NCBI GenBank assembly: GCA_026025075.1
Contig: JAPEUI010000096.1
Location: 1-63,532, forward strand
DNA length: 63,532 bases
From: Vezdaea acicularis
Taxonomy: Eukaryota
Direction: 5' to 3'
Part shown: positions 10,775-60,557 of the stretch, one piece after another
Numbering within the stretch: the first letter of the stretch is position 1
Layout of the letters: the number at the start of each line of letters is the position of its first letter
The notes under the pieces: model-generated
Databases searched by the model: none
Told to the model about the DNA's origin: nothing
Seen by the model: the letters and a program-made list of their open reading frames with translations, nothing else
Translations under genes and position numbers: made by a program

Positions 10775-13762
10775 TTATGCAATTTCCACGAAACCACGCT
10801 TCTTTAAGCTCGGGATCTTTTCGTTCCATGCTTCTTCGTCGACATAATCCTTGGACCCACTCTCATCGATTGCCCTTCCCATAAACCTTAACCCGGCGAT
10901 GTTTACGCCCATTTCATCCTTTTGTCTCTTTAAGGACAGTCGAAGGCTTCCTCGGATTTCATCAAGCAAAGATCGCATCATTTTGCTTGCTATAATTTGG
11001 CGATGATGTATTTTTAGCATGAAAAAGAGTATTCGACATGTCAACGATATATTCCATCCTTTGTCCGCCCAGAATTTGAGGAAAATAAAGAGTTGTGGGA
11101 CTCGCGCAAATGGGAGGACGATAAGGGCGTCTTGCAGGGCAGCGGCGTGTATCTTCTGGATCACATTGAGGACATGCTGCTCTGCAGATATATTACCCAT
11201 GGCTATGAAAAGTAGATTCCGGGCTGGTGGGACAAGGCCAGGTTTCTCGGATTTCGCTTTGGCCCAAGCCTGCATGAGCTCCAAGTCCTCGATTCCGACA
11301 TCAAGAGCCTCGACTATCTTTTCTCCTGCCATCAAAGTTTCAGTTGTCTGCTTTCCAGCTGTTTGAACCTCATTCTGTGTTTGATCAGTTTGTTCCAGCG
11401 AGGCCGTTAAGGTCTGCTCGTACATCTCTTCAAACTCTTTCTCCCGCTCTTCCTCAAGAAATATTTGCTCGTCGGTCTGCTTCCATATGCGTATGCTTTT
11501 GTCATGGCTTGCGCTGATAAAGTAGTCTCCAGATCGGCTGACGGCTAGCGCCCATATTTCGCCGTGGTGGCCATCCAACTTCTGAATTTGCTCGAACTTG
11601 TCACCGTCCCAATACTTGATCAGCCGATCTTTACTAGCGCTTAAGAAATGGTGTCCATTTCCATCCCGGTTGTGAGGAATGAAGGAGACCTGCATGATAC
11701 TGTCTTGGTGAGCGAAAAAGGCCTTGTGGCAGTCACCAAAATCGAGACCCCAAAGTCGCACGTTTTTGTCTGCGGAGCAAGTCACTATCAGCTTGCTATC
11801 GAAGGAAATGTCCATATTCAGTACAGGCAATTTATGCCCGTAAAGATTAAGAAAGTGCTTAAGAGTGTCAAGGAAGAAGATTTTGACTGTGTTGTCCAGC
11901 TGCGCAACAGCAAGTAGTCGTGAATCAGGACTGAATCGAAGACTAAGCACGTCGTCTGTTACTTTCAACGTCCGAGTGTGTACTAGGCGAAGCTGGGGGC
12001 TGGTTCTTCGAGTGCCAGGAACTTCTTCCTGGACGATACGAAAGTTCCAAAATTTGACCGTTTTGTCCGCGCTCCCAGTTGCCATTGACTTCCCGTCAGG
12101 ATGAACCTGTAAAGTCCATATCGGCCCTTCATGGGCCTTCACCACTTCCGTCATCGAAGATGAGACGACATCAAATACTTCCAAATCTCCGCTTTTGGTA
12201 CCAACGGTGACAATTTTGTCACCTGGCAAGAAGGAGCAACAAAGTGCATATCCACAGTCAAATGTCCTTATACATCTCTGAGCCTTGACATTCCAGATTT
12301 TGAGACTGCCATTCGATGCAGAGGCTAACATCTTATCGTCCGAACTTATAGACAGCGCTCGTATGTCATTCCTGTGTCCTGGCAAGTCGACTGAGTACGT
12401 TCTGGAGTAATTGGGATGTGAGCTTCTTGAATCTTTCGCGATATGGGATACTCCATAAGTTTCTAATTGATTGTTGGCAGTGGCAACAAGTAATTGCACT
12501 GACTTGTTCCCACTTAGCGCATCCCATGAGATTGAGCGAACTTTTCCTCCAGTACGAACGATAACATGTGGGACGAATATCTCTGAGACATCAGCCTCAG
12601 ATAAATCAATGTGACCTATCTCGTTGTCTAGTACGGCTTCTCTTGCTTTAGCTTCTCTTTCCGCTTTCTCCCTCTTTCGACGACGTTTTCGTGATAAAGT
12701 TTTCTGGACTTCACCTTCTGACTTGATGCGCCATATTTCAACAGCTTTCTCTGATCCATGGACAGCGAAGTAGTCCTCGTGAGGCGAGAACTTCACCCCT
12801 AACGTACGCTCCCTTCCTTGGCGCAAAAGAGTCCCCATACTGCGCAGGAATGACTTTTCTACATCCTCAGAATAACGGCTCTTGAGCAATTTTAGACCAT
12901 CCGAATCAATAGACCAGAATCGCAGCTCTCCATCATTGCCAGCAGTGATGAGCCTGCCATCTCTAGATGCGCTTGCCAGCGCCCAGCACTCTCCACTTGT
13001 CTGGACGACATGTGTTTCAATGCAGTGACGTGAATCAAGGTCCCAAAGCTTTAGGAGAGAATCCTTTCCCGTCGAAATGATGAAGCCTGCCTCAGTATCA
13101 GTCCCTATCTGGTCATTGAAGAGTTCCTCGTTCGACTCCTGTGAAGCCGGATCAAGGAAGCTCAGCCCAGTGATCTGATCTTTGTGGCCTCGAAGCCTAA
13201 ACAATCCGACCTCGGAAACAAGATCCCACACGATGATATCCGTGTCTTTCGCCCCACTTGCAAGTTGTACTCCGGATTTATTGAATGTTAACGTCGTAAC
13301 TGCAGAGCGGTGTCCGTTGAATGTTACGATTACAGATGAATATTTCGAGTCCCACAGCCTAATACTGCCATCTTCATAGCTGCACCAGGATAGATTAGCG
13401 GTTTTTTTGGGTCGCTTTTACTCATCAAAGACCATACCCTACAGCGAAGACCTCTGGATCTTGTACACTTTGCTCAATGACCGTGACTTCAGATTTGCAT
13501 TTCGGATCCAGCCATCTTTTCAGTAACTCTCCCTTCTTGACGTCCCAGCACAATACTCCTTCGTTCGCCGGTGCCACAGCACGACCAGCGCCAGTACTGC
13601 GCAAGGCTGTTTTTGGGTCATGGCTATCCGACGTCCACACAACGTTGGAGCTAAGAGATGTTATAACTCCAAAGGTCTGGTCATGCTCATACTTCCTGTG
13701 CAATCCAGGTCAGCGATGCAAGGTGTAGAGTCATGAAGTTCTTACAGGTATGATTTGACCAT
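10775..13762 (-). CDS. DIP2: U3 snoRNP WD40 protein Dip2/Utp12
   Basis: Start MVKSYLR, many WD40 repeats (LYGHKLPVLNMDISFDSKLIVTCSADKNVRLWGLDFGDCHKAFFAH) and a Utp12 C-terminal domain; two 5' introns. Confidence 0.95.
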
Positions 13763-19078: not shown

Positions 19079-19882
19079 ATGGCTCCTAAAGTTGCCATCG
19101 TCATTGTAAGACCGCTCCTGTCTCGGGATGATGCTAGAGGCGAGCCCAAGCTTTGACAGCCTTGCCTGACTTGCACGTTTAGTACTCCCTGTACGGGCAT
19201 ATTGCCAAACTGGCCGAAGCCGAGAAAAAGGGCATCGAGGAAGCTGGCGGAACAGCTGAAATATACCAGTGACTTTCTCTCGTCTTAGAGATTCAATCGT
19301 TCCGGTCCTAACCTCTACTTACCATAGAGTTGCAGAGACACTTCCCGAGGAAGTCCTCACGAAGATGAAGGCCCCTCCTAAGCCAGATTATCCAATTGTC
19401 AATCCTACAACCCTTTTAAATCATGATGCTTTCCTCATGGGCGTCCCAACTCGTTATGGGAATATGCCAGCTCAGTGGAAAGCATTCTGGGACAGCACAG
19501 GTCAAGTTTGGGCGACTGGTGGCTACGTTGGAAAGTATGTTGGAGTCTTCGTTTCTTCTGGGAGCTCAGGTGGTGGGCAGGAGTCTACTGCCATTGCCTG
19601 CATGAGCACGATTGCTCACCATGGTCTTATTTACGTCCCTCTCGGATATGGGACTGCGTTCCCAATATTAACAAACCTGAGCGAGGCTCGAGGTGGTTCT
19701 CCGTGGGGAGCTGGGACGTTTGTGAGTACTTCCTTACCTACCCATTGTCATGGCGCCTTGGCTTATGTTGTCGTTAGGCTGGCGATGGAACCCGCACACC
19801 TTCATCACTTGAACTTGAGCTAGCCCAAATTCAGGGGAAACTTTTCTATAGCACTGTCTCGAAGGTCGACTTCTCCAAGTGA
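19079..19882 (+). CDS. Flavodoxin-like NAD(P)H:quinone oxidoreductase (WrbA/Pst2/Ycp4 family), 4 exons
   Basis: [52 protein letters not shown]. Confidence 0.94.
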
Positions 19883-20938: not shown

Positions 20939-23900
20939 TCAATGCAAGAGATTCCTGAGAGAGGGGCTTGCGCTAGCACCGCTAGGCGTGCGGCCTTCGC
21001 CAGGTCTTCGGCTTCCACCCATATATCCATTAGGGGCGGATTCTCCAGGCGTAGTTGGCCGACCTTGTATCAGTGAGCTGCTGCCATGAGCGGGACCAAA
21101 AGTGTGCTGGACTGGGTGGTGAGGGGGTAGTTGATGATGCTGATAAGGTTGATCCGGATATCGGGGCGCGTAGGGTCCATTTACTAGGTGCTGGTGTGGG
21201 ATCGGAGGCGGGTTGTCGTTCATGACATGCCTAGGAGGCGGCCCACTCATCATGGGCGGAGCATGAGCTATCACTCCGTTGATCTGATGAGGCGATCCAT
21301 GTAGCTGTGGCGATCTAATGTTTTGAGGAGGTGGCACGTTGGTAGCGTACCCATTGAAGAGAGGAGGGTTTCCTGTATGTGTAGGAGACATGCTATTGAC
21401 AAGGGGAGGGTGTGTTGCAGTAGGTGGTGGATGCCAAGCTTGATAGTGCCCCATCGACGATTGGTGAGCAGAAGGCCACTGAGGCTGGTGATTGGGCGCA
21501 TGCGAAACAGGTAAGATCGGAGGTGACTGTTGAGCCTGTATTTGTGGCTGTGGCAGCAACGCCGCTACTTGTGGCGGTGGTGAGGGCGGTTCCTCGAGCT
21601 TCTTGAGAAAGCATTTATGGCACATATAGGCTGAGTTTTCTTCTCCAACTGCGGCGGTGTCAACAGTGAGAGCAGCCGCAGCAAGAGCAGTGGAAGTTTC
21701 TAGAGGTTCACGGCCGGTGGAAACACCGTTCAGCCTCATTTGATGAGTTGCATCGGGATTCCTGGAATGGGTATTGCCGTTGGTGATACCTGCAATCCGG
21801 GTAACTCCCCACAGATCCATGGGATCATCTGTGTGAAGAGGAACCTGACCTGGTGATTGTTTTGGATTTTTGGGTTTTCTTGCGGCGACCTTCCTCCACC
21901 TCGGGCTCACGTCGACACCACAGGTGATACAGACCCGTTTACTCGGGTCTGCCTCTTTGGCACTTATCAGAAGTTCGTGATCTTCAAGGTCTTCTCCCTT
22001 GAAAGTTGTTCTTGTGGCTGATTGTGATGTACCCGAAAAACCCGCAGTAGTTGCTGTGGAAGCTCTTCTGTTCCCTGTCGCCGATGCTACTGACGTGACG
22101 GCTTTTGTAGATTGGTTGACAAGGTTTGCCTTCCGAACGGTTCCTGTCAAAGTCAAGTCGGCTTGCTTATAACTTTGCACGTAGAGTTGCATGGCATTGA
22201 TGCCTGCCTCGTCTACAACCTCGTCCATCGAATGAATTATTGTCTTGACCGAATGGTCTTTACACCAAACGGCGGCAGTCATTGAACCAGATTCATTCCC
22301 TAAGTTTACCGTGTTGACAAGATCTCGGCGCGAGCTTTTGACTGGGGTGATATCAAATCCTAGGACGTAGCCTCGCTGTTTCGCACAACCAACATGAACT
22401 ATATTGTCAGCATGAAAACTCTCTAGAACAGGGTGGGTGCTCGTGGACTTACCGGGAGCGTGACAAGCGTGACAAGTGACGCACGCACCAGCGCTTGTCT
22501 TGCAGAGCTTGCAAACCTGCTCAAACTTGAAAGACGGAATGGTACCCAAGCCCTCCAATGGCTCCAGGGCTTTGGCATTACCAAACTTCAGCTCGGGTGT
22601 CCACACAGCACAGACGACATGGACCCAATTATTTCCAGCAGTTCGTTTAAGGGGCTCCCGAGGATTTACTGGTCGATTCATGTCCTCTTGCCTCTGACGG
22701 TAGAACTCAGCCGCAGCAACCGCTCTTTCGCGCTCAAGGCGGTCCTTTTCACGTTCTTTGTCTGTTTTCTTCTTGTGCGAAATCTTCGGTGGCTCAACAA
22801 AATCATGTTCTGTATGCCGCACCGGACATAATAGGCACTCATAGGACTATTCAAGTCAGCGGGTATAGGTGATAGAATTGACAGACAACATACCGTTGAG
22901 ACTTGGGGATTTTTGTCGTTTGAGCACATGTCACACACCCATTTTAACACATTTCGGACCTCACTGACTCCATAGCATTGACGGTGTACTGTCATGCGGC
23001 ACTCCTTGCAAGAGAGGTGCTGCTCTCCCATAGGTTCCATTTTGTCGCAGATCGCACAAGGTAATACCTTGGGCTTTGGCATCTCGGGTGTTGGAGAGCG
23101 TTCTGGTTTTTCAGTGATCTTCTTTTTATTTCCGGCACTAGTAATTGACACAGAAGTTGAGGTTGGAGTTGCTCCTCGGTCTTTCTCGGATCCAAGTTTC
23201 GCCTTCTTTTTAGGGGGCTGGTCTTGCGTCCCTTGGGAGTTGGAGGTCACACCGTTGGTGCTGTTCACGGGATGAACAACCACATTTGAGGCGTTACTGT
23301 TGTTAGATTGTGATCCTTCGTTTGCGACCATTAGCTCTTTCAAAAGCTCTTCGTCGATCCTCCTCTTCCAAGCAAGACCGCCCCGCTGAGTTACCTTCTT
23401 TAATATTTCTTCTGGGTCTTCCCACTGCACACCGTAGCGTCGCCAGAGCTCAGCACAGCGTCGACATAGAGCAAGCATGTACTGGGCACCTTTGTCTTTA
23501 GACCCACCTTTTAAAAAGAGATCCGCGGATATCGTTGCTCCCGGCGTTACATTCGGAGCCCTACGCCATTGTCTTGACTTGGTCGTCTTACAGAATTTGC
23601 AGGCAAACCCCCTCTTCTTCTCAACCGCTTTATCATTATCAAATGCTGAATCGTCGTCATCATCTGCCACGTCGTCCACGAGTTTAGACGAGTTGACTTC
23701 AACACGCTTAGCTTGCTTCTTCCCTTTCCTCCCTTCATAATTGCCCCAGATCTGCATCCCAGCATCAGTTTTCTTCCACACGTAGTAAAATCGAACAATA
23801 TCTGCATGTTCGCGAGTTCCGACATGCTTGGTGATGTTGTAGAGTTCGGAACCGTGCATTCTAACACCCTCTTCGAACCGTTTGACCTCGTCTTTACTGA

Positions 23901-26337
23901 GTTCAGGTTCCCCAAGATCTTTACGACGTATTATGGTTTTCAGCTGCTTGAGAGCTGCGTCCGCATCCAGTCGGTTATCCCAGAAAGCCTTCACCGCCTT
24001 GTCTAGAAAGTTCGTTGATCCTTTCTTCACGCCGAGGCTCTTACCTAAGTCTTTAGCTTGAGCCATATAGTCATCAACAAGCTTCTCTCTTTCTTCGCCA
24101 CTCGTAGAGAGAGTCGTAGCAACAGTACTCTCACCAGCGCCTCTTGATGATGGTTCGCCAACTTCTGGTAGTCTGATCGTAGCCCTTGCGGTGCAATCGG
24201 GATCGTCATTGTTTTTATCCAATCCGCGGTGAACATAGCCTGGAGGCTCGTCCAGAACCCATTTAGGCCTTCGCTCCTTAGCTAGCTTCTCCGCTTCCAA
24301 GGTTTGTAGGGTCTCCTTCGACAGTTTACCATCCTTCTTGTGACCGCCACCTTTGACGTATTTCTTCCTAATCTCGGCAGGTTTGACTAGTTCTACTGGT
24401 CGACCGTGCCATACGTTCACATTGGCCTGGTGACGAGGACCAAGCCTCGAACTAGCTCGGGGATAGATCCGGTCATCGTAGTCCAAGACGTCTTCGACTC
24501 TGCAATGGACGCCGAGGTATCGGTAAGGCCACATTCTTGCCTGAGCAACTTGCTCTGGAGTCGCGGGATGAATATCGATATCCAGAGTCGCTGACGCTGG
24601 GCTAACCCCATTGGCTGTCCGGGCTCCTACAGCCAATGCTTCGTCCTCATCCTCATCCATCAGCTCCTCTTCGTCGCCTTCCACTTTGTTTTCGTTGACT
24701 ATCGGAGTATTTCGAGCATCTAACTTTTTCTCCTGGGCACGGCTGCAGGGACCGCATGACCAACCAAACCCACGGGAGGGCTTTTTCTGCAGAGGGGGAT
24801 CCAGACATTTCATATGGAAGGTTGAGCGGCAGACAGCACACTCTACAGAGTCATTACTGAAATGGACCCTATTAGCAATTATCATGGTTTGGAGCCAAGA
24901 TTGACATGCGTACCTCGCGCAAAAGCCGCTACAGCGTTTGCATGATTTGGCCGGAGTGATTAATTCCTTGGTCCGGCTACCCTCAGCGACGACAAACCGC
25001 CATCTCTCATCGAGAACTCGCTTCACCTTAGGGGGCACATTGATGACTTGGCTGGTAGGAACCACATCATAGTGTCGATGCATGTACCGTTCGTATACTT
25101 TATCGTACCAAAAACTGTCTGTTCTCTTGCGGTATTCATCGATATCACCAAACTCGCTCCTGTGGAGAATTTGGCATTTTCCTCGCAAGGACGTTATCGG
25201 GCAAGTGTCTGAATGCATTGTTGCGAAGACAAGACGAGTGTCGGTGACTTTACGTGGAATCTCTCTTGGACGATAGTACCAATTCACTCGGATCGAGCTG
25301 ATAGGCCGGCTATGATCGTTGTTGGCGTGTAAGAACTCCATGATCCGGCCTAAGTAATAAGGGTCACCCGGTGGCTCGCAGATGAGATAGACATGGTCTA
25401 GAACAGGTCAGCACCGAGACAGAAGCAGCAAGAGGGCAAGAGAGCAATGGAGATGGGGTCGGAGTTTTAAGGTGACTGCAAAGCGATTAACAATGGAGGA
25501 CAAACCGTTTACAGCTAACACAGTGCCGTCGTCCGCTTTGAGCGTTCCCTGCTTTGAAAGATAGGCCTGAGAGCTGTTGAAGGTTAACATATTCGACTCT
25601 TCTTTGCCACTTATACCTGCTGCCATGCTAGCTCTTCTTGTTGTGATATGGCCACTGCTGGCGGTGACGACGTGAGACGAATGCCCGTTGGTGGAGTGGC
25701 CGGCTTGTGCGGCTTTCCGTTTCTTAGATGGGGCTGGCGTGGTACTGGAGCTGAAACTGGCGGAAAAGGTGGACGTGCCAGGCAGAGAGTCTTTTGGTGC
25801 GGAAGTCGTTATCGTGGAATCTTGGTTGTTTACGGCGTTGCTTGCGGTATTGGTTCCCGTTGCGGTCCGACGTGTAGTATCGCCCACTGCCCTTCCAGAA
25901 TCGACGACCTGAGCTCTGCTGAAGCCATCACCTCCAGTTGCTGATTTGTTGGCTGCTGTTATCGCCGCAGAATCATCGAACTCTGCCTCCATCTCTTTGT
26001 CTTCTGCATAATTAGGTCGCGCTCCTCCAATTCGATTTCGAGAGCGTGTGCCATATGGAGAAGCGGTACTAGACGTATTTGCGGACTCTTTCACCGAAGC
26101 GTGGGAGGACGACGACGAGTTCGCAGTCATGGGTTGTGATTCAGCCAAACTCGGTGGCATTGCCGCTGCCCGCTGCGGTGACGAGAGAAAGGTGCTTGGT
26201 CCTGCCGCAGAAGATGGATTCAACGATCGATCTACCTGGTGCGTCTCAGACTGTGCAGTGGGGTTGGATAAGGTGGTGGTATCAGCGGCCGATGAGGTGA
26301 CATGAGCAGTTGTCGATTTGCGGCCCTCATCTGCCAT
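20939..26337 (-). CDS. SNT2: Snt2/SntB chromatin regulator (BAH, PHD, ELM2/SANT, PHD/ePHD)
   Basis: BAH (CEPPGDPYYLGRIMEF, RVNWYYRPRE, TMHSDTCP), PHD (CAVC...HMKC...CGPC), RLGPRHQA, SANT (IVRFYYVWKK) and WVHVVCAVW. Confidence 0.94.
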
Positions 26338-28793
26338 GACGAGGAAGAAAGCGCGCCCACAACTACCCACGGAAGTAGTGGGCGGCAGCCTTGGGCCAGT
26401 TCAAGCCACGCCGCGTGAAGAGAGAAACCCAAGCACGCTCGTCGTTTGAGCACAGTTCAGTGTGAGCGGCAGGGTTGTTGGGCTGGAGAGTCAGAATCGG
26501 TCGTATCGATTGGTCTGTCCGTAGGGACGGCGATTGATTGGAGCTGACGCAGCAATCGACTTGTTCCCAGCCTGTGCGGTGTAAGCGTCGAGGTTCCCTT
26601 GCGAATTCAAGAGAGCGGTGGCAAGATCGGTCTGTCCTTGCGAGGATGCAATATCAAGATTGGTGGGCCAGCACCTTACAGGCACAGATGCACGAGGGTC
26701 GAAGCGTGCGAGCAAAATGGGTCGCAGTGCAAGGGTCGAGCGTTTGGAGGCAGCGAATCGTGCGTAGGTCGGATGAGGATAAAAGGTGGCAGACGGTGAT
26801 GAAATTCAAAGGAATGGAGGAGAGTAGCAGCCGCGAGTGGGGGGAGGGAGGAGCACGAGGGAAAAGAAGCTGCAGAGCCTGACGTGGAATGTGTCGAAGA
26901 GCGAGGAGCGAAGAGAGCGAGGATTGCTGGCCAACGGGAGGAAGGGCACGATGGCGGCGCAAGGTAACGGGACGGTGGATATCAGACAGCGGAAGAGGCG
27001 AGAGGCTACCGTAGGGCGATTGAGAGTGGGATCCCTATCAAACCGGGGCTCTGCCTCTGCATTTCTCCTCTTTCCTCTCTTTACGTCCGCTCTAGCCACC
27101 GCCAGCTACTTGACATTACTACCGCACGCACAGATATGTTTGCTATGCGCGCTGTGAGCAGGTGCGGTCTCGTGTCTACTACTTGTACGCGTTACGGCGC
27201 TTGGCGTCAGGCGGCGTCGCGCGGCGCAAGGGACCGCTCAGGAAGGCCAGACAGCGATTTGGCATGTCTTCGATGATAATATGCCCAGCCGACTGGACCT
27301 TTCAAAGAGAGACCCGTGAACCCTCCCTCAACCGCCGTCCCCTGCATTGGCCCTCCGAAGCCTCATGCCGAGATGCAAACCTTACAGGCAGAGGCGGCCG
27401 GCTCCTGAGCGTCTTGTCGGCAGACGCCCCCCAACGCAGTGCATCGGTCTGCCCGTGTATCCGAATCTGCAGATACCGACACCTTGTTCCCTTCCAGCTG
27501 CTCGTCGTCCTCGCTCGGCGGTCACTCAGGCCGCCCCCCAGCGCTGGTCGTGAGCAAATGGCGAGTTGGGCCTTTGACGGTCGCCGTATTTGCCGACCTA
27601 CGCTAGCGGCTAATGTTACGCGTTTCACATCGCCTCCAATATCAGAAACGTCTCCTGCGGTAGACACCATATGCGAAATCCTCAGAACTCTCTTGGATGG
27701 ACTCGCCTTCTCAGGGCGCAGAACGTCGGCCCTCCGCCCAACACTTGACGATTCTTGATCTCGAGGCTTCTGTCCTACTGGAGGAAGTATGACTAAGAGC
27801 AAGTCGCAGCAGCCAAGGGAGCCTTTCTTCAAGCCCCGCACTCGTGTAGTGTGTCATATATCATGCAGTATCATTTGTTGCTGTCAATGTAGCGCCGAAC
27901 GACTTATGGAAGTCCTTGAAGGACCATCTGAGCGCACTCAAATAACCTTTCAAAGCTATAGCTTAGTGACCCGAGAGAGCGAGAGAGATGTTGCGAGTAG
28001 ACCTATCATGTGTTGCAGCACCCAATTGTCTCACCGACTCCACATACGATGTGCCCTCACGACTTGATGAGGCTTTCAAACATGAGAAGGCTGTCGGAAC
28101 TAATTGCCCACACTCGGCAGGTATTACGACTTTCAAACCCGATAACCTTTGCGCCCCTGGAGCCGTGACACTTCCCTGATCAGACGAAGTCCGCTTCACG
28201 GTACTCGCCGTTATTTCTCATAACTACATCGGCATGAAATCTAGTCTTTGGGCTATGCGGGTGGCTGCGATATAGAACAGGTCCAAGGAGATATTGGCAT
28301 GGAGTTTGCTCACTCGCTTCGGTGCCTTGCGCGACCGGGACCCTGGCTTGGCGCGGTTGACACTGGCACTGGCGCATGCGATTCCCCACGTTCCGCCGTT
28401 CCGCCGCTCGCTAAACGGACGAATCGTTCCCCTGCTAATCTCTCCATCCATGAACAACAATGCAACAACAGTTGCTGGTGTAATGCTGTATCGAGGACCG
28501 GCCGTTAAATTCTGCTATATTTGTTTCAAGAGGGCAAGGTAGGCGTCAAAATTCTCGCACACGCAAAATGATCAGCCACCTGCGGAACCCTATTGGAGCA
28601 CCAGATTTGGCCGAAATTCTCCAAAACTCTAAAGTCGTATACTGCATTTGCCGTACAACATACACTGTAATTTAGAAGATCCAAGGGCATATCTTGGGAT
28701 AACAAAGCGCCGCGAGCCAGCAAAAATATTGACGATATACCCAGAAGATCAGGAAACGTGCAGTCTCACTACGTGCAGAGTCAGGTCTAAGTA

Positions 28794-30782
28794 TTGACTC
28801 CTACGGTGGTCCAGAATCCCCTCTTTGCTCTTTCGCACTCTCAGTATGGCTTACTTCAAGGCCCGGTGTGTGATTTCTCAGCCATGTAAATGAACACTAT
28901 ATATTTACGACAGTCTTCTAGTCTAGTATGTCGTGGAGTTATGGCGCCGAAAAGACCTTTTTAAACTTGGTGCCATTAGATGCAGGCAAAGTCGCTAGTT
29001 GCAATGTGCCGTCGAGGGAACCCAAAGGTACATCCTGAATCTATCCCAGGTCGTAGCGGAAATACTAGGTGACGTAGTCGAGAAAACGAAAATTGAATTT
29101 GGGTAGCAGGGTTGTTGGACAGAGGCAGAGCCGTGTGAGCTGAGCTGATGTTGAACTTGCGATGATTATGTATAGTTGAGAAAGTAGCTTTCTTGGACCC
29201 CTAAAACCTTCCTGTAAACTGACAAATATCTTACAAGCCATATCTCCTTAGTTACTTTGATAGTCGGAGGCTGCTTTTTTACAAATCTTAGAGTTTTTGA
29301 AGATGAACGAACTGCAGATGACCAATGGCGATAGTCATGGCTATATCATAGAACTTATAGCAACCAGGCCTCATCATCTTGGATTCAAAGTGCAGATCAA
29401 ATTGATAAGGGCGACGGTAGTCGTGCGGACAAGTGCTCGGCTCCTCTGAATTCCCCCCCCCCCCTCTAAAAAATTAATCCCAATACATGAACACTGAGCT
29501 CCTTGCAGACTGGCTAGATGTTAGATACCATGAGTTAAATATCACCAAAGGCCGGTCAGGGAATCCGAATCCCCCATGAAAAATCGGTTCACCCTGTTTG
29601 GGCTTCCTTCAATCTTCTGGAGCTCTAACTCAGCTTCATGGCCGCTACATTACGCAAAAAGCGGGTGTCCATGGTTGACTCGTTCAGGGTTCAGGCCGTC
29701 CAGAGCTAAATTTTCGGTCATGAATGCTGTTGTTAGTCTACTGAGCGAAATGATAGCTTCTGGATACAACGCTATTGTCTTCTGTGGGTGTTGAGTAGGG
29801 TGCAAGCAGGATGCTATGCTCATCAGCCGAAAAATGCCTGCTATAGCAGACGTACCTGCGAAGCTGAGAGATGCAAGGCTGAATGTGGATCGTCCACTTG
29901 ACTTACACAAAAAGCCGGAGTCCTTGTTCATGACGAAGTCAAAAGAGAATTGCAAACCTCCTTCCTAGGTAGGATCACGCATATCTTCTACAGGTTCATC
30001 TTTGTGCAATCTTAGGAAACTTTAGAGATCAACCGGCATGCATCTCTCAAGGAGATAGAGCGCTGGGATGGAAGTAAGATATGAGAGCTCTTGATACGTA
30101 AGTATCACAATTCATGTGGCCGTAAAGCTGTCGGACATCTGGACTAAGCCTTTGTCCGGTATTGCCCATTACTAATTGACAAATGAATCAAATATCGGAT
30201 CTCTCAAAGAGGAAAAGCCAGAAGAGATACACATCACTCGTCTATGCCGGTATATCTATACAGCCTTTCAATGTCGGTATCTTGTATTGAGTTCCAATAC
30301 AAGCGGCCCCTCGCGATACGACAACTACGAAGATCTGTACAGAATGATGCTTGGACCTGCCGGGATTTCGTTCCTAGAACCATCAAGTATTGCGAGTGCA
30401 TGAGATGGAGAATAGTTCAAGCATTATGAGCGCACATGACTGCTCGTCTTCATCATCAAGGATCACTTCCGGCTGACTCAGCCCATGCAGGCGGTCGAGC
30501 AAATCTGCTTGATTCGGGCCTAGACCACCTTCCTGAGAGAACAAATGGCGCGAGTATTTCAGCAGCGCGAGCTGAGGGATGTTTACTCCTGGTAAGTGCT
30601 GCAAGAGGTGCTGTCTGTCTGGTCCGGCAATGCCGGCGCTTGCGAGGCACGCTAAAGATTCCATGCGGGCTCAACCGAGAAAGTCAGGGTTGCATGGAGT
30701 CAAGGAAGTCTCAAAACTAAGGTCAGAGCCAGAGATCATAAGGCAATCTGTCAGTTGGATTTGGAATAAGTGGATCGGATGA
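28794..30782 (+). pseudogene. Decayed HELQ/Hel308 (DNA polymerase theta-like) helicase pseudogene with internal deletion
   Basis: Collinear remnants: LTPTVVQNPLFALSHSQYGL (28794), frameshifted Walker A AGK/SLVA (28982-29003), MNELQM...HGYIIELIAT...VQI...RAT (29303-29416), NTELLADWLD (29490), NAVVSL...GYNAIVFCGC*VGC (29723-29803), GVLVHDEVKRELQ...HIFYRF, RRSVQNDAWTC...IKYCECMRW, AGGRANLLD and MRAQPRK. Many stops and frameshifts. Confidence 0.85.
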
Positions 30783-31447
30783 AAGCGGCTTCTCGTATTT
30801 TCATTTTTATATTCACCAAAATTGATGTTCTTGGACTGAGTTGAAGGAATTGCAATCGGGAGGCAAAAGTCCAAACACGTCGTATTGAGAGTTTTGCCTT
30901 CCTCATTGAAGACCACCCTCGAACACCTACCCTGCGGCTCACAAGTCCCACTACCAAGAAGCTATCATAGCGCCACATGATCTGATTTGAATTTGAGGAT
31001 ATGTTGACCCAGTTCGGCTGTGCTACCGCTATACCTTTTGCAGTAATTCGAAATCCCTCCGCTCTTAGGCGCGTTGATGTCGAACAGGCTATCCCCCGGC
31101 TACCCGGAAGTCGACCAACGCGTATTTCCTTAATAAGGATGATACTGTGTCCCCACACAATCTAAGTTTCAACCGTCGTTCAGGCTATGATTACCAAAAT
31201 CTTGGTCATTAACCTTCCTTGCTTGAGGCGTTGTGAGCCCAGCTACAACTGCATGTGTCTGCTTGTGATGATCGATCTCAATAAGGTGACCTCCAATCTG
31301 ATTTGGAATATAAAACCCTCGGGATGATCATATCAAGATTTAAACGCATTCCGTCGCACTCCAATTCCTATTTTGAAGGATCATCTCGAAACTTGCTTGT
31401 TCCAAACTCTTCTTCTCCCTCAATAGCTCAACTCAAGACTAATATAG

Positions 31448-32544
31448 ATGGCTCCATATAATTATGACCCTGTCATACAAGGCTTCTATGACTTTGTCGC
31501 GAAGCAAGGCGGCCCAGGTTTAGTTGATCTCGATGTCGTAGGTGCTCGAAACCTCCTCGAAACCGTCCAGAAACATGAGCCTGCCGATGATGTTGTGACT
31601 GAAGAGCTTGGAGATCCAGTGTCAGCGAAGAGCTCGCGCAAGTCGCTCATTTACAAGCCAGTTGGAGCATCAGGAGACTTAAAGACGGTTATTTATTTCC
31701 ATGGTGGTGGCTGGGTACTTGGAAGGTCCAAGACCATTCTCCAATTCCCTGTCTTTAGCTGATCATTTCAAAGCCCCAATACCCATGATCGTTTAATAAG
31801 AGATCTTGTTCGAGAGTCCGGACTTGCATTTGTCTTTATTTATTATACACCTGCTCCAGACAAACAGTTCCCGGACACCTTCGAGGAGGTGTTTGAAGTC
31901 GTTCAATGGGTCAAAGCAAATGGCGCCAAGAAGGGCCTAAAGACTGACAAATTCGCCTTCGCTGGTGACAGCGCCGGAGGTTAGCGTCCTTGAAGCTATT
32001 CATCAAGAGCCCCGCAAACTCTCAAATCACTTTTTATGACGTTTGATGACTATCATTTTGCTGACTCCTTATTAAAGGTCATATGTCCATCGCCATGAGC
32101 AACTATTGCATCGAACGCAACGGCCCTAAAGTCGTCTTCCAGGCCATTGTGTATCCCGTAACAGACCTGGCCCACGAAAGCTCCACTTTCAAAGACTTTG
32201 CCGACAACCCGGCCTTGAGCGCAGCCGCAATCCGCTGGGTCTACCATCACTGGATTCCCAACAGTGATGATCGTCTGGACTACCACGCCTCACCGATCCT
32301 GATGACTAAGGAGCAGGCGGCCAAGCAGCCGCCAACGCTGCTCATCACGGCTGATGTCGACTGCTTGCGAGAGGAAGGCGAGTTGTTCGGCCGTCTTTTG
32401 CAAAAGGCCGGCGTGCAGACAAGTACGTTTCGCGCGTTGGGGGCCAGCCATGATTTTTGCATGATCAATGGTGTTGCCGGCAGCCCAACTACACAGGCGA
32501 CTATAGAGTTCGTGGCTTGGAAGCTAAAGAAATCCCTACGTTAA
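31448..32544 (+). CDS. Alpha/beta hydrolase fold-3 (HSL-family) esterase/lipase, 3 exons
   Basis: YFHGGGWVLG oxyanion motif, AGDSAGG nucleophile elbow, D-x-LR-x-EG and H-D-F catalytic motifs. Confidence 0.92.
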
Positions 32545-38900: not shown

Positions 38901-39480
38901 GCGAATCGCATAGGCTAAGAAAAGCACGAGTCTACCAGGCTAGAATAGCTGAGGTGAAGAGATCAGAAGTCCATTAAGATCATCGGAGCCAATTTAAACT
39001 CCTGACATAAGAGGTACCAGAAAAAATTGTAATAGGAATGTATCATCATAGAGCATTCGTGTTAGACTGGAAGAAAACTATTACGTACCTTCGGAGAGCT
39101 TTGATCGAGGTGCGGTGGTTAGCCAACTAAACATCAGGAGTGCTCCATGTTCTGCTAACAGCGAATGGCGATGACTTTTCTTAAGACTTTTGCAATATCG
39201 AGAGAGATCTAGCTATGCTATCAAGAGTTCTTGGACTTGATTAAGGTGTGAAGGTGCCATTTGGGAACGGTCTTGAGCGATATGAGATGAATCATAGAGG
39301 GGGTTAGAGAGCCCTGTAAAGTCTGTGGTTCGTTGTCCGCCTGACTCGAGTCGCCAAAATTTTTGTGAGGGTTCTCGACCTATCACCCACTTTCGCCTAG
39401 CGCAAGAGGCCTCAAACTAAATACAACGACCCGAAGTAAACCCACTTATTGACAACTTCCCCACGACAACTATCGCTAAG

Positions 39481-41205: not shown

Positions 41206-41389
41206 TGTTACTTGTATCAAATTTCTCAAGGGTTGTACTTTAATGATGGGGGAGCTTTCCCACAGTTCGCATTTGATAAGTTATGTTGCGGACCGGAATA
41301 ATTTCTGCTAAGCTCCGATACTTCAGTCTGTTGCCTTGCGACATGCTGCAAATTTGTCGACGCGACGTCATGCAACTCCAAATTCAAAT

Positions 41390-44091
41390 ATGGGCAGGCT
41401 TATCAAGCAGACTCCTTGGACAAACTGTAATGATAATGGGACCGACGTGCCACTTGCTAAAAGACTGAAGAGATCACAGCACACAGATGGTTCAATAACT
41501 CGAAGAACTCCTAGCTCTGAGTTAGAGAACCAAGGATTGCCTATACCAACAGAGTACATTACAGAAATACCAGATTCAGATGTGGACGAAGATAGTAAAG
41601 ATCTCATTTCGGGGCCACCACTCCGGCCGACAGCTTTGGAGAGCGCTTTGGCTCCCGTGACGACGGATAAGGAAGCAATCGCAGAATACGAAGCATCAAG
41701 ACTCGGCGGCGACGCGTTAGGGCTTGAGGACCGACTCGGTCAAAGAAAATGGACTAAGGGCAAGAGTTCTATTTATGTAGACGCCTTTAACTTAGCACTA
41801 GAAACAGTGCTCCAGGACGAAGGCCATTTGTTTGACGAAACTGAGATTGAGGTGTTTCAGCAGTGGCGAAGTCTCGAATATGAAGCACAATACCTGTACG
41901 TTTCCTACCAACAAGTTACTAAACAGGTTGTTCTCCGCCAGTGAGCTGGTTCTCTAGACGTTCCTGCGGAATCAAGATCATCTGACCCGTTCAGAATCCA
42001 GAGGTTGATAACTTGATGTAGTTACGTTCGTCTTTTCCTAAGGAAAACCTCGGCCTGGCATCGCATCAACAAACTGGGCTACTTCAATGATATTGCAGAT
42101 CTCCCTAAAGCCGTGCAAATACTTCAAAATGTTCGACCCCTGCCAGCCTCAACAGCTCCGCTACCAGTGAATCCCGGGGAACTAGAGCCCCCAGTAGGCT
42201 TTACTCTTCGCTCAGAATTCACATTTGCAGACGCCTCAAGTCAAGAGATTACTACTCTTGAAGAAGCTTCATCTTTATTGAGCCTTGAAGAGCTTAAAAC
42301 TCTTGCAAAAGAAGTCAAGGTGCAGGGGAAGAACAAAATAGAATTGCTGAAAGCGTTCCGACGAGCAAGCAGGAGGCAAAGTGGTCTGGATTGGGGACTT
42401 CAACGGACCGAAAGCGAGGAGACTACCGTCTCCACAGATTCTGTCAATGAACAACAAGGGGAAATAGGAATTCGGGAGTCACCTGTCAGAACCAATCGAG
42501 ACGAGCATTTCGTAAGGAAGATCCTTCACCACACTGGTCCCTGTATTCGGCTTTCCTTGGCACCGTTAAAGGTTTTTGAAAGAGTGCATCTTGTGTTTTA
42601 TCGTTCCACAGAGTGGACAGAAAACTCATTGACAACAATCATCCTGGCTCGAATATCTCGCCGTAATTTCCCGGATTATGTTGTCTCCCGCTCCGCCAAT
42701 ATCTTCAAATCTCGGGCCGCGTTGTTAGAATTCGAAGCATCCATTCGTACTCAGTACCGAGTCGATAGCATACTTGAATTTAACGGCAACCCTACTAAAG
42801 AAGGATTGCAAGAAGTCCTAGATATTTTTGAAGAAGTGTATCCAAGGTGGAAAATACTATTGCGGGAAGAACAATTGAAAGAGGACCGTGTGTATGAGAG
42901 TGGAGAGGGTGCCTACCTTCGACGATTTTCGCCTGCTTGGGTCTATACCCGCATTGTCCATAAAGGCGTTTGGGTGTTGGGGCGTTTCAAGATGCACAAA
43001 CGAGAGCATCAGATACACGGAGAATTGCTAGCTCAACATCTATTCCATGCAGCAAGAAGAGGGGCATGGTACCAACGAAAAGCTCTACTTGAGGAACATT
43101 ACATGGCCGCCCTCATACCCCTGGAGGGCAGAGATACTGATGCGCAGAAGAAGCATTGGAAACGAATCGCACTTCGAACTTGTGAGGAAGGTCTTCGGGA
43201 CAAAGACTGTCATGTTATTTATCACTATGATCTGCAGAAACGAATCACGAAGCTTGAGAAAAGCCTAAAAGTTGTCAAAAGAGAGCAGCATGATTTCAGT
43301 CATGCAAGACTAATCAAGCCTACAGAGAGGACTGTAGAAGGTACAAGAATTGAGAGAGCGAGTACGCCTGGCAGTCGGCCCAATGGCGAATCAACGACCT
43401 CTGGCCGTGGAGCCAAGACGATTTGGCGTGACGAGCGGGAAGGAGGAGGGGAGTACGGTGTAGAAGCTATGTGTCTCAGTCACTATAGAAACGAGGGATG
43501 GAAGGGTTATCACGCAGAGGGCGGCATCATCCGAACCCTGGTAGGCCCACCAACAACTCCATCTCTGATCTGTTGCTAATTAGGTTCCAGTTTGCATACC
43601 TCTTTTTTGATATCCTTTTCACCTACATCCCCAATGTATTCCAAACTGCCTACCAAATTTGCCCTCTAGATCTGCATACAGACGCTTTCTACTCGTCCCG
43701 AATATCAGAAATCAACCATAGACTCGTTGAGATTGGTAACGGAGAGGCAGGTCGCCTGGTTCGCGAAGTTCACGCACATCACTCCCAAAAGCAAACCTGT
43801 GTAATTGGTCTAGACTGGTCATACAAGCTTGATGACCTTCTAGAAATAGTGAAATGCTTTGACGGGGTAGCGCTAGCGACCATCTGTCAGGTAATGGCGC
43901 AAGAGTATAGACAAAGGGGTGGCGGGATCCCAGATCTGTTCCTCTGGCATCCAGAGCGCCAAGAAGTCATGTTCTCGGAAGTAAAGTCGGAGAATGACCG
44001 CCTGAGCGATACGCAGCGTCTTTGGATTCATGTGCTTACGGGTGCTGGAATAAAAGTGGAGTTGTGTAACGCGTTAGCTAGGACGAGTTGA
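41390..44091 (+). CDS. FAN1: Fanconi-associated nuclease 1 (VRR-NUC), 3 exons
   Basis: SSIYVDAFNLAL, YVRLFLRK, RRGAWYQRKAL, GWKGYHAEGGI and the PD-(D/E)xK motif GGIPDLFLW...FSEVKSENDRLSDTQRLW. Confidence 0.94.
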
Positions 44092-47818: not shown

Positions 47819-50303
47819 ATGAAGCTGCGCTATCATCTGTCTCTCCTAGGAGCTGGGGTCGTTCTTGCGTCTCCTGAAGCAAGTAGTATCAACTCTAGCA
47901 TGTCCAGCGCTACAACCGTAAGCGCTGTCAGCGCGAGCGCGAATCCGTGCGCTGTTCTATCGGAGTCTGCCAAGACGTATGCCTCTCAGCACCCTCAAGG
48001 TAGGTCCCTCGAGAAAATCCGAGCAGAAGAGCGATGTTAACTTTCCCCATAGCCACCACCATCCCACTCAAGCCCTCCGAAGTTTACGCTTGCCAACAAG
48101 ACGTACCCTTTAATGAGACTTTAGCGACAGCTCTGCTTGATTGGTTACATAATTTCCTCCAATTTCAAAGCACGTTGGCCTACCTAAAGAAGCCTCCTCC
48201 GGCATATCAACTTCCTGCGGTGGACTTGATTGATGGTTTGAAGGACTTGTCGAACAAAGTATTAACAGGGGATTACAGAAATGAGTACGACTTCGAATAT
48301 GACGTTTACAGTCTCATCAATAGCGCCGCTGATGGCCATTTATCTTATTTTCCATTCGTTGTATTCCTGTTTAGTTTAGACCGAGGAGCTCCTCTGGTAT
48401 CTGTATCCTCGGACGGCGTTCAACTGCCAAAAGTATATTTACTTAGTCAGTCAATTTATCCCAACTGCTCAATTTATAACAGGTTCTCTTTCTAATACCT
48501 GTCCCAGACGATATTCAAGAAGTTTTCGGCAATACTAAGACAAATTACACACCTTCGGCGCTTAAGTCAATCAATGGTCAAGATATTGAGCAACATCTAG
48601 ACGGTATAGCCATAGAAGCGGGGCAGTTTCAAGATCTAGACGCTCAATACAATGCATTGTTCTACAACCCCTCCACAGAACAGTTCGCGCTGTATACAAA
48701 AGGTAGATACAATACAGATCCCGGGTCTCTCTATCACAGCGACTCTGCCATTTACACTTTCGAAAATGGGACAAACATCACGATCCCTATCACAAGTACA
48801 GCACCTGTGGATATACGGTTTGGAAGCGGCCAGGAGCTCTTCACAAAATATCTCATTCCACCTAAAGCAAATTCGTCTTCGGCATCAGCATCGTCTACCG
48901 CATCGGGCACTCCCACTTCATCTTCTGCAACAAGTGTTGCTGCTAGCAGCTCAGCTAGTATTCCAACTGTAACATCAATACCCGGTTATCCCCATGCTGA
49001 AGTGATTACAGATGGGGGCATCGTTTCTGGCTATTTCTTAAATAGCAACAACACAGATGCCGCCGTACTCAGTGTTCCCACCTTCGATGTAACCTCCCAC
49101 GCAATCGATGTAACCTCCCACGCAATGGATTTCCAGCAAGCGGTCCAAAATTTTCTTGCAGATTGTAGATCTGCCGGTAAATCGAAGCTTATCATCGACG
49201 TCCGAGGTAATCCTGGTGGAAGCCCTTATGTTGCGTTTGATCTTTTCAAGCAACTCTTCCCTGACGACACCCCCTACTCCGGGCTACGGATCCGCGACTT
49301 CCCCGTTGCAAATGCTCTTGGACAGGAGGTCTCAAAAATAACCCTTGATGATGCTATGAACGGCGACAATAATACAGCGGATGCGTACCATTCTGTTTAT
49401 AATTATCAAATTTCACTGCAGAAACCGGACGGCGCAAACTTCACCTCATGGCAACAGCTCTACGGACCGAACCAAATATATGGCGACTCTTTTTCAGCCA
49501 TTCACTCTTGGTCCTTTTCTAACGCAATCCTTGACATCGTGCTTAATGATATCGTCGTCAGCGGATACGCGAACAACACTAACATCGCCCCAGCGGCCTT
49601 TGCCAGTGAGAACATCACTCTAGTGAGTAACACTCAACTTCACTTTCCTTACTTGGCACCAAAGCTAGAGCTCAAACTAATTCCTTCACAGCTGACAGAT
49701 GGCCGATGCTCATCTACATGTGCGCTTTTCTCCAATTTACTTGTCAGACAAGGCAAAGTCAAGACTGTCACTGCCGGTGGCCGTCCCAACAAGCAGCCTA
49801 TGGCCGCCATTGGCGGCACCCAAGGTGGCGAATTCGTAACATTCGACCTCATCGCCAGCATCGCAAATGCCGCTCTCGAAGTTGCAAAAAACAGCAGCAA
49901 TTCGTCCGAATTACCCAGTGTCTCGTCTCTCCTCGGTCCACTGATCCTCCCGCCGCCGATCTTGCCCCACGGGGGCCTCAGTGCACAAGGACTCAACCTC
50001 CGCGACAATATCGCACAAGACGACTCCACTCAGACGCCTCTACAGTTCACATATACCCCCGCCGACTGTCGCATTTTCTACACGCCGGCCGATATACTCG
50101 ACGTTAGCAACACCTGGCTGCGCGTGGCTAATGGCGGACTAGGCCTCTGCCTCAATACAACCACTCCTCCCACCACCATGGTCAGTACAACAACCGCTAC
50201 CCCGACCGCGAGCGCCACTCGGTTCCTAAGCGGCGCAGGTAGCCTACGCCTTCGATGGGGAGCTCTGTTCCTTGCTCCTGTGATCTATTTTGTAGCCATG
50301 TAA
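47819..50303 (+). CDS. Secreted, probably GPI-anchored S41 (tail-specific/CPAF-like) peptidase, multi-exon
   Basis: Signal peptide, QFQSTLAYLKKPP, DGHL, LIIDVRGNPGG, LTDGRCSSTCALF, GGRP, GGTQG, ADCRIFYT, a Thr-rich stalk and a hydrophobic C-terminus. Confidence 0.9.
49084..49125 (+). repeat. Perfect 21-bp in-frame tandem duplication inside the S41 peptidase
   Basis: TCGATGTAACCTCCCACGCAA occurs twice, giving DVTSHA-I-DVTSHA. Confidence 0.95.
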
Positions 50304-60335: not shown

Positions 60336-60557
60336 ACCTTTACGGGGAATGCGGCTTGGCTATCAAAGAAGCTAGTGGAGAACACTTCATCACGAAAAGG
60401 GAAAAAGGGGAGGGGGGAGGGGCTTTTGGTCCAGGGGGATGAAGCGCTCGTATTAGGGCGAAGTTAATAGTAATACCAACCAAACAGATCCCATACCCAC
60501 TCACAAATCCCAGCCCAAAAATAAATAAGCCTATCCCAACTTTTCCCCCATCCCCCT

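Follow-up and report, generated by a model that had tools for sequence, protein, structure and literature searches.

The helicase-only homologue of DNA polymerase theta (Pol theta) of the Pezizomycotina is a protein of 900-1010 aa, in which the domains DEAD, Helicase_C, HTH_61, POLQ_helical and DUF7898 follow one another in this order. The POLQ_helical Pfam domain is common to human POLQ and the fungal family, but the fungal proteins differ from human Pol theta in having no polymerase domain. They also share their superfamily, that of the Ski2-like DNA helicases, and a five-domain plan with Hel308/HELQ. For the animal and archaeal enzymes, functions in crosslink repair and in recombination are established; the same cannot be said of the fungal family, and we know of no established function of the helicase-only Pol theta homologue in filamentous ascomycetes. 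In databases, members of the family go by the names 'DNA polymerase theta subunit' and 'DNA-directed DNA polymerase theta'. Passages of a study on Hypoxylon sp. CO27-5 call the Pezizomycotina homologue 'HelQ' or a POLQ-like helicase, likewise describe it as devoid of a polymerase domain, and mention the patchy distribution of the helicase-only family ('many taxa'), so that both the family and its distribution are already in print (PMC8469720). A 2026 review states that Hel308/HELQ proteins do not occur in all fungi (PMC13623763). Fungi are treated in reviews of HELQ/Hel308 as organisms that lack enzymes of this kind. Our literature search found no published account of a pseudogene or a loss of this fungal helicase.

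Among solved structures, the closest to an intact member of the family (P0006) was the helicase domain of human POLQ (PDB 5A9J, 5AGA, 8W0A and 9BH6; E 7e-119, 401 bits). Archaeal Hel308 structures matched far more weakly (E 4e-56 to 8e-44), in a ranking of POLQ against Hel308 that leaves HELQ proper aside, none of the 51 PDB matches being a structure named HELQ. In the window analysed here, i.e. the whole stretch of 63.5 kb, an interval between two fungal genes that looks empty consists of the badly decayed remains of a DNA-repair helicase gene, which is still intact in many related fungi. On the plus strand, from about 28523 to 30782, the helicase-only Pol theta homologue of the Pezizomycotina survives as a relic that is collinear with its parent family but heavily decayed; the domain order is that of the family, Helicase_C and HTH_61 having been deleted. 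The initial annotation had spoken of a fossil of HELQ/Pol theta type; the Hel308 superfamily and the Pol theta type both hold, and the parent can be refined to the helicase-only homologue of the Pezizomycotina.

Identity of the relic

A phmmer search with a frame read-through of the relic (P0002) against 1.84e9 proteins returned 11 matches at E<=1e-3, the best of them with E 1.9e-7. The five that carry any Pfam family have helicase or POLQ-helicase domains only, and the remaining six are short fragments without any Pfam family. Furthermore, all 130 family proteins compared by tblastn (130/130) matched the plus strand at 28.6-30.8 kb with their segments in order, in line with the earlier claim that collinear remnants of a Ski2-like Hel308/HELQ helicase run here across stops and frameshifts. 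The family HMM recognised plus-strand domains with E 1.1e-13, 4.5e-12 and 5.7e-11, as against only E>5 on the minus strand, and no second match anywhere in the 63.5-kb window. In a frameshift-aware profile alignment, the relic reached 238.5 bits over profile positions 41-924 of 932, whereas none of the 52 controls (43 shuffles, 8 natural stretches and 1 reverse complement) exceeded 44.7 bits. More precisely, 40 shuffles had a mean of 31.6 bits (sd 5.7, max 44.7), three earlier shuffles gave 21-35.5 bits, the natural stretches 25-41.3 bits and the reverse complement 22.2 bits. Since blocks of 3-9 residues in this alignment are at noise level, indel counts and exact deletion edges vary with the parameters. 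The significant homology extends collinearly along the length of the protein and at the C-terminal end includes POLQ_helical and DUF7898, ordered as in the family (29917-30450 and 30484-30770).

Several other searches were blind to the relic. Pfam gave only three noise matches (E>=0.19) with 12 single-frame fragments, a phmmer search of the PDB with a 61-aa fragment spanning motifs II-III gave four noise matches (E>=1.4), a 349-aa frame read-through (P0001) had no match in either the PDB or Pfam, and NCBIfam had none in all three plus-strand frames. For P0001, a word-index search for homologues among longer proteins yielded 1361 scored candidates, of which not one reached E<=10. Such an absence of anything relevant in four kinds of search would suit intergenic DNA that resembles helicase motifs merely by chance. 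The probability of such a coincidence is nevertheless negligible, given the phmmer E-value among 1.84e9 proteins and the collinearity of every tblastn match, and it is refuted by the alignment controls. We attribute the failed searches to the degree of decay and not to missing homology. It took an exhaustive phmmer search and a profile of the family to detect the relic, and, as it is invisible to standard searches, annotation pipelines will call the locus empty intergenic DNA.

The remnants are mapped in Table 1. All motifs singled out in the initial annotation (PLDAG/KSLVA, NELQ, RAT, NTELLADWLD, AIVFCGC, HAGGRANLLD and MRAQPRK) are where it had placed them, with a similarity far above chance. 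The interval 28794-30782 that it had proposed is right at its end, where an in-frame TGA (30780-30782) follows the last aligned block. Its start, however, has to be moved, as the relic reaches further upstream: of the 25 best among the 130 tblastn queries, 20 start to match between 28602 and 28782, and the profile alignment begins, weakly, at 28523. A GTAAGT occurs at 30592-30597, within a 49-nt gap of the DUF7898 remnant.

Table 1. Remnants, spacers and deletion junction along the decayed helicase gene (positions in the window).
Feature	Position	Strand	Alignment	Lesions and details
N-terminal remnant, weak, in a poorly conserved region	28523..28796	+	Profile 41-105; blocks of 10.4 and 5.0 bits	5' limit soft
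Conserved N-terminal block QNPLxxLxHxxYGL...IY..Q	28797..28955	+	Profile 106-158; 45.5 bits; HMM domain 28746-29000, E 5.7e-11	In-frame TAA at 28887-28889
Motif I/Walker A remnant NLV..PLDAG/KSLVA	28964..29003	+	Consensus NLV...PTGGGKSLVA	PLDAG/KSLVA at 28973-29003, split by a 1-nt frameshift at 28988
RecA1, middle part, badly decayed	29004..29189	+	Profile ~175-267	No counterpart for about 57 profile positions, motif Ia among them; in-frame TGA at 29141-29143
Intron-sized spacer, 55 nt	29190..29244	+	After CIVEKVA (profile 267)	CTGAC branch-site-like motif at 29219-29223
Motif II-III block LKMNELQMTNGDSHGYIIELIATR...VQIKLIRATV	29245..29419	+	37.4 bits for 29297-29419; HMM E 9.9e-6	1-nt frameshift at 29296; DELH to NELQ at 29306-29317 (288D>N, 291H>Q); SAT to RAT at 29408-29416 (322S>R)
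Intron-sized spacer, 67 nt	29420..29486	+	Directly after the SAT-L position (profile 325)	12-C run at 29453-29464
MNTELLADWLDVRYHE / KYHQRPVRE block, then decayed variable linker	29487..29713	+	Profile 326-351; 23.1 and 10.2 bits	NTELLADWLD at 29490-29519; P0011 HSP covers 29490-29534
RecA2 start/motif IV, SVMNAVVSLLSEMIASGYNAIVFCGC (stop) VGCKQDAMLISRKMP	29714..29839	+	Profile 404-445; 51.2 bits; HMM E 4.5e-12; best phmmer stretch	AIVFCGC (motif IV) at about 29774-29794; near-invariant Arg replaced by an in-frame TGA (29792-29794)
Deletion junction	29840..29916	+	tblastn, HMM and profile alignment	
POLQ_helical (ratchet) remnants GVLVHDEVKRELQ..., ...KEEKPEEIHITRLCRYIYTAFQCRY..., ...LRRSVQNDAWTCRDF...KYCECMRW...	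29917..30450	+	Profile 677-837; blocks of 36.4, 30.3 and 41.9 bits; HMM domain 29896-30453, E 1.1e-13	In-frame TAG at 30013-30015 and TGA at 30427-30429; several 1-2 nt frameshifts
C-terminal DUF7898 remnants HAGGRANLLDSGL, TTFLREQMARVFQQRELRDVY, MRAQPRKSG, SKLRSEPEIIRQSVSWIWNK	30484..30782	+	Profile 838-924; P0098 aa 894-947 matches 30663-30821 (tblastn HSPs)	HAGGRANLLD at 30484-30513; MRAQPRK at 30663-30683

Disabling lesions

A functional member of the family has an uninterrupted frame of about 900-1010 codons, but the longest plus-strand ORF in the interval encodes 96 aa. In total, the relic contains five in-frame stops and about 15 frame-changing gaps of at most 15 nt. Motifs I-III, which read PTGGGKS, DELH and SAT in intact proteins, are all mutated; in Walker A, near-invariant positions are replaced by T>L, G>D and G>A. 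In addition, about 200-227 codons (profile ~446/472 to ~672) have been deleted and are represented by at most ~77 nt, the alignments jumping from profile ~445-470 to ~672-677 at the junction. A jump near 29905 from just after motif IV to GVLVHDEVKRELQ, which begins at 29917, had been noticed before, together with the deletion of HHAGL and motifs V-VI, and our alignments agree with it. With domain coordinates for Helicase_C and HTH_61 taken from the intact member P0006, the deletion comprises GVAFHHAGL, motifs V and VI, which form the Helicase_C core, and the HTH_61 winged-helix domain. Lost with it is at least one intron position, present in relatives after profile ~487.

The remaining sequence is heavily substituted. 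Among 233 near-invariant columns of the family, 72 lie within the deletion; 148 of the other 161 align, with 75 residues kept and 73 replaced. Identity to the family majority consensus is 130/322 (40%) over the nine best blocks, compared with 65-86% for intact members, and in the same columns intact members show 53-93% identity versus 31-43% for the relic. The terminal branches of 34 intact members have a median of 0.136 and do not exceed 0.41, whereas that of the relic measures 1.74. In the family tree the relic falls in a deep polytomy, a position made uninformative by this long branch. The age ascribed to the relic from the start is supported.

We give practically no credence to a live gene hidden by sequencing or assembly error, unusual splicing or recoding. 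Apart from the stops, the frameshifts and the missing RecA2 core and winged helix, the replaced near-invariant residues include two of motif II (D>N, H>Q) and one of motif III (S>R), and the neighbours of the relic in the window are clean long ORFs. No helicase can be made from this locus, because the motifs for ATP binding and hydrolysis are hit, the RecA2 core and the winged helix are gone, and stops and frameshifts occur throughout.

Intron-sized spacers

The two spacers of Table 1 correspond to intron-like gaps that had previously been placed at ~29174 and ~29417. A pyrimidine tract with a TAG (29249-29251) lies just downstream of the 55-nt spacer. Both spacers fall within one or two codons of exon boundaries of relatives, as these can be read from aberrant gene models: P0005 lacks profile 266-326, which puts a boundary at 265/266, while P0004 and P0008 have inserts of 20 and 19 aa after profile 325, and the gap of P0005 ends at 326. 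The relic shares these two intron positions with relatives in its parent family and has to this extent retained the intron-exon structure of the parent. A third candidate spacer (29004-29070, after profile 174) is ambiguous, as it can alternatively be taken for decayed coding sequence of motif Ia (ILNLSQV), and the two readings are within a few bits of each other. At profile 135/136, where one relative appears to have an exon boundary, the relic has no spacer.

A processed retrocopy, i.e. a reverse-transcribed copy of an mRNA that was dead on arrival, is highly improbable, since the 55- and 67-nt spacers interrupt the coding remnants at intron positions of relatives. Moreover, neither a poly-A tract nor flanking direct repeats were reported at 27500-32000. 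The conclusion that the relic is not a retrocopy, already drawn in the initial annotation, is thus supported.

The locus and the origin of the relic

RIP targets duplicated segments in many Pezizomycotina, and the usual thresholds of its indices are about 0.89 and 1.03. The relic has a TpA/ApT ratio of 0.76, a (CpA+TpG)/(ApC+GpT) ratio of 1.38 and a GC content of 0.464, all within the range of the neighbouring genes. On these normal indices we rejected a RIP-inactivated repeat, a class into which the relic does not fall. An origin from a transposon or repeat was rejected as well, the only matches at 27500-32000 being short two-copy ones.

Other features are absent from both strands of the relic interval. 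Neither an Rfam family nor a tRNA was found in it, and the five longest minus-strand ORFs and one plus-strand ORF at 28224-31161 had no Pfam match at E<=0.01. The persistence of the relic at near full length despite heavy substitution could suggest that it was retained as non-coding sequence with a new role, for instance in a promoter, UTR or lncRNA of the neighbouring alpha/beta-hydrolase (Abhydrolase_3) or SNT2 gene; such a role would account for 2.2 kb of dead DNA still being undeleted. We regard this as very unlikely, because nothing on either strand, be it an Rfam family, a tRNA, a repeat or a Pfam-matching ORF, speaks for such a role, and because the load of substitutions and indels is spread along the entire relic, as in neutral decay.

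As for the neighbourhood, a FAN1 gene lies 10.5 kb downstream of the relic, close to the 11 kb first claimed, and a Utp12 gene lies 15 kb away. In the lichen fungi Xylographa pallens and Pycnora praestabilis, the locus tags of the intact helicase and of Utp12 are 14 and 62 apart, and in each species both proteins are listed with one and the same contig size (85,840 bp in X. pallens and 309,916 bp in P. praestabilis), the linkage being read from locus-tag numbers and equal listed contig sizes only. Going by these locus tags and contig sizes, the relic may still be in its ancestral neighbourhood, near Utp12. The Utp12 of the window is 63-67% identical to every named match, across several classes, so that the organism has no close named relative. 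In being disabled, in keeping its intron spacers and perhaps in occupying the usual neighbourhood of the gene, it may be likened to unitary pseudogenes.

We thus take the relic for a pseudogene, non-processed and long dead, of the Pol-theta-like helicase gene that Pezizomycotina have in single copy, most likely at the ancestral locus and reflecting a loss in this lineage, i.e. a unitary pseudogene (probability roughly 0.65). According to this reading, a gene with RecA1, RecA2, winged-helix, ratchet and C-terminal domains would have been inactivated in place and lost in the lineage, and would since have accumulated roughly 0.3-0.7 substitutions per site by neutral drift. From the observations above we infer this neutrality, as well as the great age of the relic, its ancestral position and the lack of an intact copy elsewhere.

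Alternatively, the relic could be a dead duplicate, with an intact Pol-theta-like helicase elsewhere in the genome and no function lost. Nothing direct favours a duplicate; the search covered the 63.5-kb window, where the family HMM matched the relic alone. Among the 120 matches listed, no named species has two family entries apart from Paecilomyces variotii, whose two tags look like those of different strains. The intron-sized spacers kept in the relic and its position near Utp12, where the intact gene also seems to lie in two named relatives, argue against a duplicate, and so does the absence of a RIP signature, which would be expected in a duplicated segment. On balance, we consider a dead duplicate unlikely and favour the unitary pseudogene.

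Implications

The relic is real, but as an old dead gene from a family already known it is, its detection and the probable loss aside, an ordinary pseudogene. A documented natural loss with a readable relic would nevertheless provide a lineage in which it can be asked what the gene is needed for, and would show the patchy distribution of the helicase-only family to arise by decay in place. It is possible, although we can propose it only tentatively, that the loss was truly unitary and occurred early on the long branch to an isolated Pezizomycotina lineage, leaving a barely sampled clade without a Pol-theta-type helicase but with FAN1 kept. If this is true, the lineage would be a natural knockout in which to study what the uncharacterised fungal homologue does, with microhomology-mediated end joining and crosslink repair as two possible fields of action.

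Homology of the remnant to the POLQ-like helicase family

Stop-to-stop ORFs of at least 150 aa are absent from 27853-32065 on either strand, the longest ORFs inside 28794-30782 being 104 aa (minus) and 96 aa (plus), and the base composition is ordinary (GC 0.46-0.49). Searches of single fragments and frame read-throughs, in which stops were written as X, returned nothing relevant in Pfam, NCBIfam and the PDB sequence set, and a word-index search against longer proteins (1361 candidates scored) gave none at E<=10. Taken by themselves, these results would have allowed the helicase motifs to be dismissed as wishful reading. A phmmer search of the read-through P0002 (494 residues, 28922-30403) against 1.84 billion representatives retrieved 11 proteins with E-values of 1e-3 or less, the best being 1.9e-7. 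Five carried Pfam matches, every one a helicase or POLQ-helicase domain (together DEAD, Helicase_C, HTH_61 [PF20470], POLQ_helical [PF21099] and DUF7898 [PF25453]), and the other six, fragments of 129-239 aa, had no Pfam match.

Of 7998 candidates scored in a search with P0006, an intact full-length member of the parent family (926 aa), 981 proteins reached E<=1e-20; named members, most of 900-1010 aa, go under the database names 'DNA polymerase theta subunit', 'DNA-directed DNA polymerase theta' or 'DEAD/DEAH box helicase'. Judging class by genus, we take them to belong to Eurotiomycetes, Leotiomycetes, Lecanoromycetes and other Pezizomycotina classes. The closest solved structure to P0006 is the human Pol theta helicase-like domain (E 7e-119), followed by archaeal Hel308 (E 4e-56 to 8e-44), ASCC3 (E 2.4e-42) and Brr2 (from 1.5e-38 down). 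According to PMC8469720, many taxa of Pezizomycotina possess a helicase of this POLQ-like kind that has no polymerase domain, which the paper names HelQ; a 2026 review states that proteins of the Hel308/HELQ type do not occur throughout fungi (PMC13623763).

In tblastn, 130 of 130 family proteins matched 28.6-30.8 kb on the plus strand in constant order, in agreement with the collinear helicase remnants claimed in the initial annotation. Residues ~90-165 align at 28720-28955, ~280-470 at 29290-29887, ~665-850 at 29902-30513 and, for some queries, ~885-947 at 30663-30821; the remaining matches in the window at E<=1 were scattered noise. A family HMM built from 102 of the 130 members (900-1010 aa; 28 were left out for length) gave four plus-strand domains (E 5.7e-11, 9.9e-6, 4.5e-12 and 1.1e-13), no minus-strand match fell below E 5, and in six frames the remnant was the only matching locus of the whole window. 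A purpose-written profile-to-DNA alignment permitting frameshifts covered positions 41-924 of the 932-position profile over 28523-30770 with 238.5 bits. Controls were far lower: 40 mononucleotide shuffles averaged 31.6 bits (sd 5.7, max 44.7), eight natural stretches of equal length elsewhere in the window, on both strands, reached 25.0-41.3, the reverse complement 22.2 and three earlier shuffles 21.2-35.5. Alignment blocks below about 10 residues are at noise level and not individually interpretable. The anatomy proposed initially was accurate except at the 5' end, which belongs ~100-270 nt further upstream. We consider the remnant a pseudogene of the Pezizomycotina POLQ-like helicase family, with a probability of about 97%.

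Decay and age

Five stops lie within aligned blocks (TAA 28887, TGA 29141, TGA 29792, TAG 30013 and TGA 30427), along with 15 frame-changing gaps of up to 15 nt and seven gaps of 49-97 nt. The decayed motifs were read correctly at the outset: Walker A is PLDAG/KSLVA against the consensus PTGGGKSLVA, with one extra base at 28988, motif II has changed from DELH to NELQ and motif III from SAT to RAT. The jump noted near 29905 is also real, since within 29840-29916 the alignment passes directly from profile ~446-472 to ~672-677, the edge being imprecise in that 29840-29902 is readable as a decayed continuation to about profile 470. Within the missing 200-227 codons fall GVAFHHAGL and motifs V and VI, as had been suspected, as well as the winged-helix domain HTH_61 (the lost domains correspond to P0006 residues 470-544 and 549-640) and, after profile ~487, at least one position where relatives have an intron. 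A smaller second loss removed most of profile 178-239, in RecA1.

The 102 intact members share 233 columns of 95% or more invariance, 72 of which are in the large deletion; 148 of the other 161 are aligned and 75 of these retained. Over the nine best blocks (322 columns), the remnant is identical to the majority consensus at 130 columns (40%), as compared with 65-86% (median 73.5%) for intact members, and pairwise it shares 31-43% identity with members, which share 53-93% among themselves. In a maximum-likelihood tree of these columns, with 34 intact sequences hand-picked from the 102 (~1-2 per named genus) plus P0006, it joins at the base, where the classes are unresolved, on a terminal branch of 1.74 (others: median 0.136, maximum 0.41). 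Assuming a probability of about exp(-2.3 d) that a codon still encodes its original amino acid, the retained fraction corresponds to d of ~0.3 substitutions per site, and the tree branch suggests a higher value. From these sequence comparisons we infer a divergence of 0.3-0.7 substitutions per site since inactivation, which, scaled by fungal substitution rates, would make the event old: its age would be of the order of tens of millions of years, if not greater.

Introns and mode of origin

Fragments and mis-modelled proteins are common among the database entries of this helicase family (P0004, P0005 and P0007-P0013, predicted proteins of relatives), with introns read through or skipped, and the exon boundaries of relatives were inferred from such aberrant proteins. 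P0004 and P0008 have inserts of 20 and 19 residues right after profile 325 (after MSATL), P0005 starts at 175 and lacks 266-326 and 489-593, P0011 lacks 136-175, six fragments match up to 486-490 and then carry unrelated tails, and in one protein there is an insert after 487. The two intron-like gaps initially described correspond to two intron-sized spacers (see the table) beside these boundaries; a pyrimidine tract and TAG (29249-29251) lie just downstream of the 55-nt one. A retrocopy origin is ruled out by spacers at positions matching exon boundaries in relatives. A third possible spacer, at 29004-29070 (after profile 174), is of ambiguous nature, being partly readable as decayed motif Ia at nearly equal score, and no spacer was found in the remnant at the 135/136 boundary inferred in one relative.

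Inactivation by RIP was excluded, as RIP indices resemble those of neighbouring genes, and so was a repeat origin, no repeats of note being present at 27500-32000. A minus-strand gene over the remnant was likewise excluded, the five longest minus-strand ORFs there having no Pfam match. The sole Rfam hit in the window was RF01505, with no family in the remnant interval, and no tRNA was found in the window.

Locus and probable loss

Features of the remnant and its surroundings
Feature	Position	Strand	Remarks
Utp12/WDR3 ORF	10775-13417	-	880 aa; 15 kb from the remnant
FMN_red/flavodoxin-like ORF	19260-19823	+	E 3.1e-8
SNT2-like gene	20939-26400	-	BAH, PHD, Myb, PHD-like fingers; flanks the remnant
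Intron-sized spacer, 55 nt	29190-29244	+	after profile 267; CTGAC at 29219-29223 inside
Intron-sized spacer, 67 nt	29420-29486	+	after profile 325; run of 12 C at 29453-29464
Alpha/beta-hydrolase gene	31448-32544	+	Abhydrolase_3; flanks the remnant
C/D-box snoRNA	38961-39053	-	RF01505 (A. fumigatus snoRNA Afu_264), 76.3 bits, E 7.4e-13, full model length
FAN1 gene	~41312-44091	+	Pfam FAN1_TPR E 5.4e-11, VRR_NUC E 1.7e-30
CPAF-like PDZ + peptidase S41 ORF	48480-50303	+	E 7e-18 and 2.1e-6

The window is fungal DNA of Pezizomycotina type. The nearby FAN1 gene, which also matches human FAN1 structures (E 6e-19 and 6.9e-24), was called intact in the initial annotation; this holds in the sense that both its domains lie on long clean ORFs. 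Between the SNT2-like gene and the remnant, a GC-rich stretch (0.56-0.57) of ~2 kb (26400-28500) holds long overlapping ORFs on both strands (27114-27758 plus, 27302-27853 minus) with no Pfam match, and could be either a promoter or UTR region that is shared, or coding sequence of low complexity. A second, very GC-rich stretch (0.62-0.64) at 60464-62192 has five overlapping ORFs of 150-387 aa across both strands, the two searched against Pfam giving no match, and drew low-complexity tblastn noise from helicase N-termini.

An indirect clue to the ancestral locus comes from two named species. The locus tags of the helicase and Utp12 are 008151 and 008165 in Xylographa pallens, with 85,840 bp given as the longest contig for each, and 004356 and 004294 in Pycnora praestabilis, with 309,916 bp for each. 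A unitary loss at the ancestral locus appears the likelier history, at somewhat reduced confidence. The Utp12 ORF shares 63-67% identity with each of the named hits, which come from several classes, presumably Leotiomycetes, Lecanoromycetes, Geoglossomycetes and Eurotiales, and 99% with one further record. Judged by this sequence, the host seems to represent a poorly sampled, deep-branching Pezizomycotina lineage, and because of this isolation the loss would be 'lineage-specific' almost by default, a label that as yet says little.

Our literature search found no paper on loss or pseudogenes of the fungal POLQ-like helicase. The remnant represents a non-processed pseudogene, long dead, whose parent family is known and patchy in distribution; decay in place is an ordinary process of gene loss, and the family's incomplete distribution is already in print. 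The family's mis-modelled entries serve as accidental markers of intron positions, yet they can mislead homology searches.
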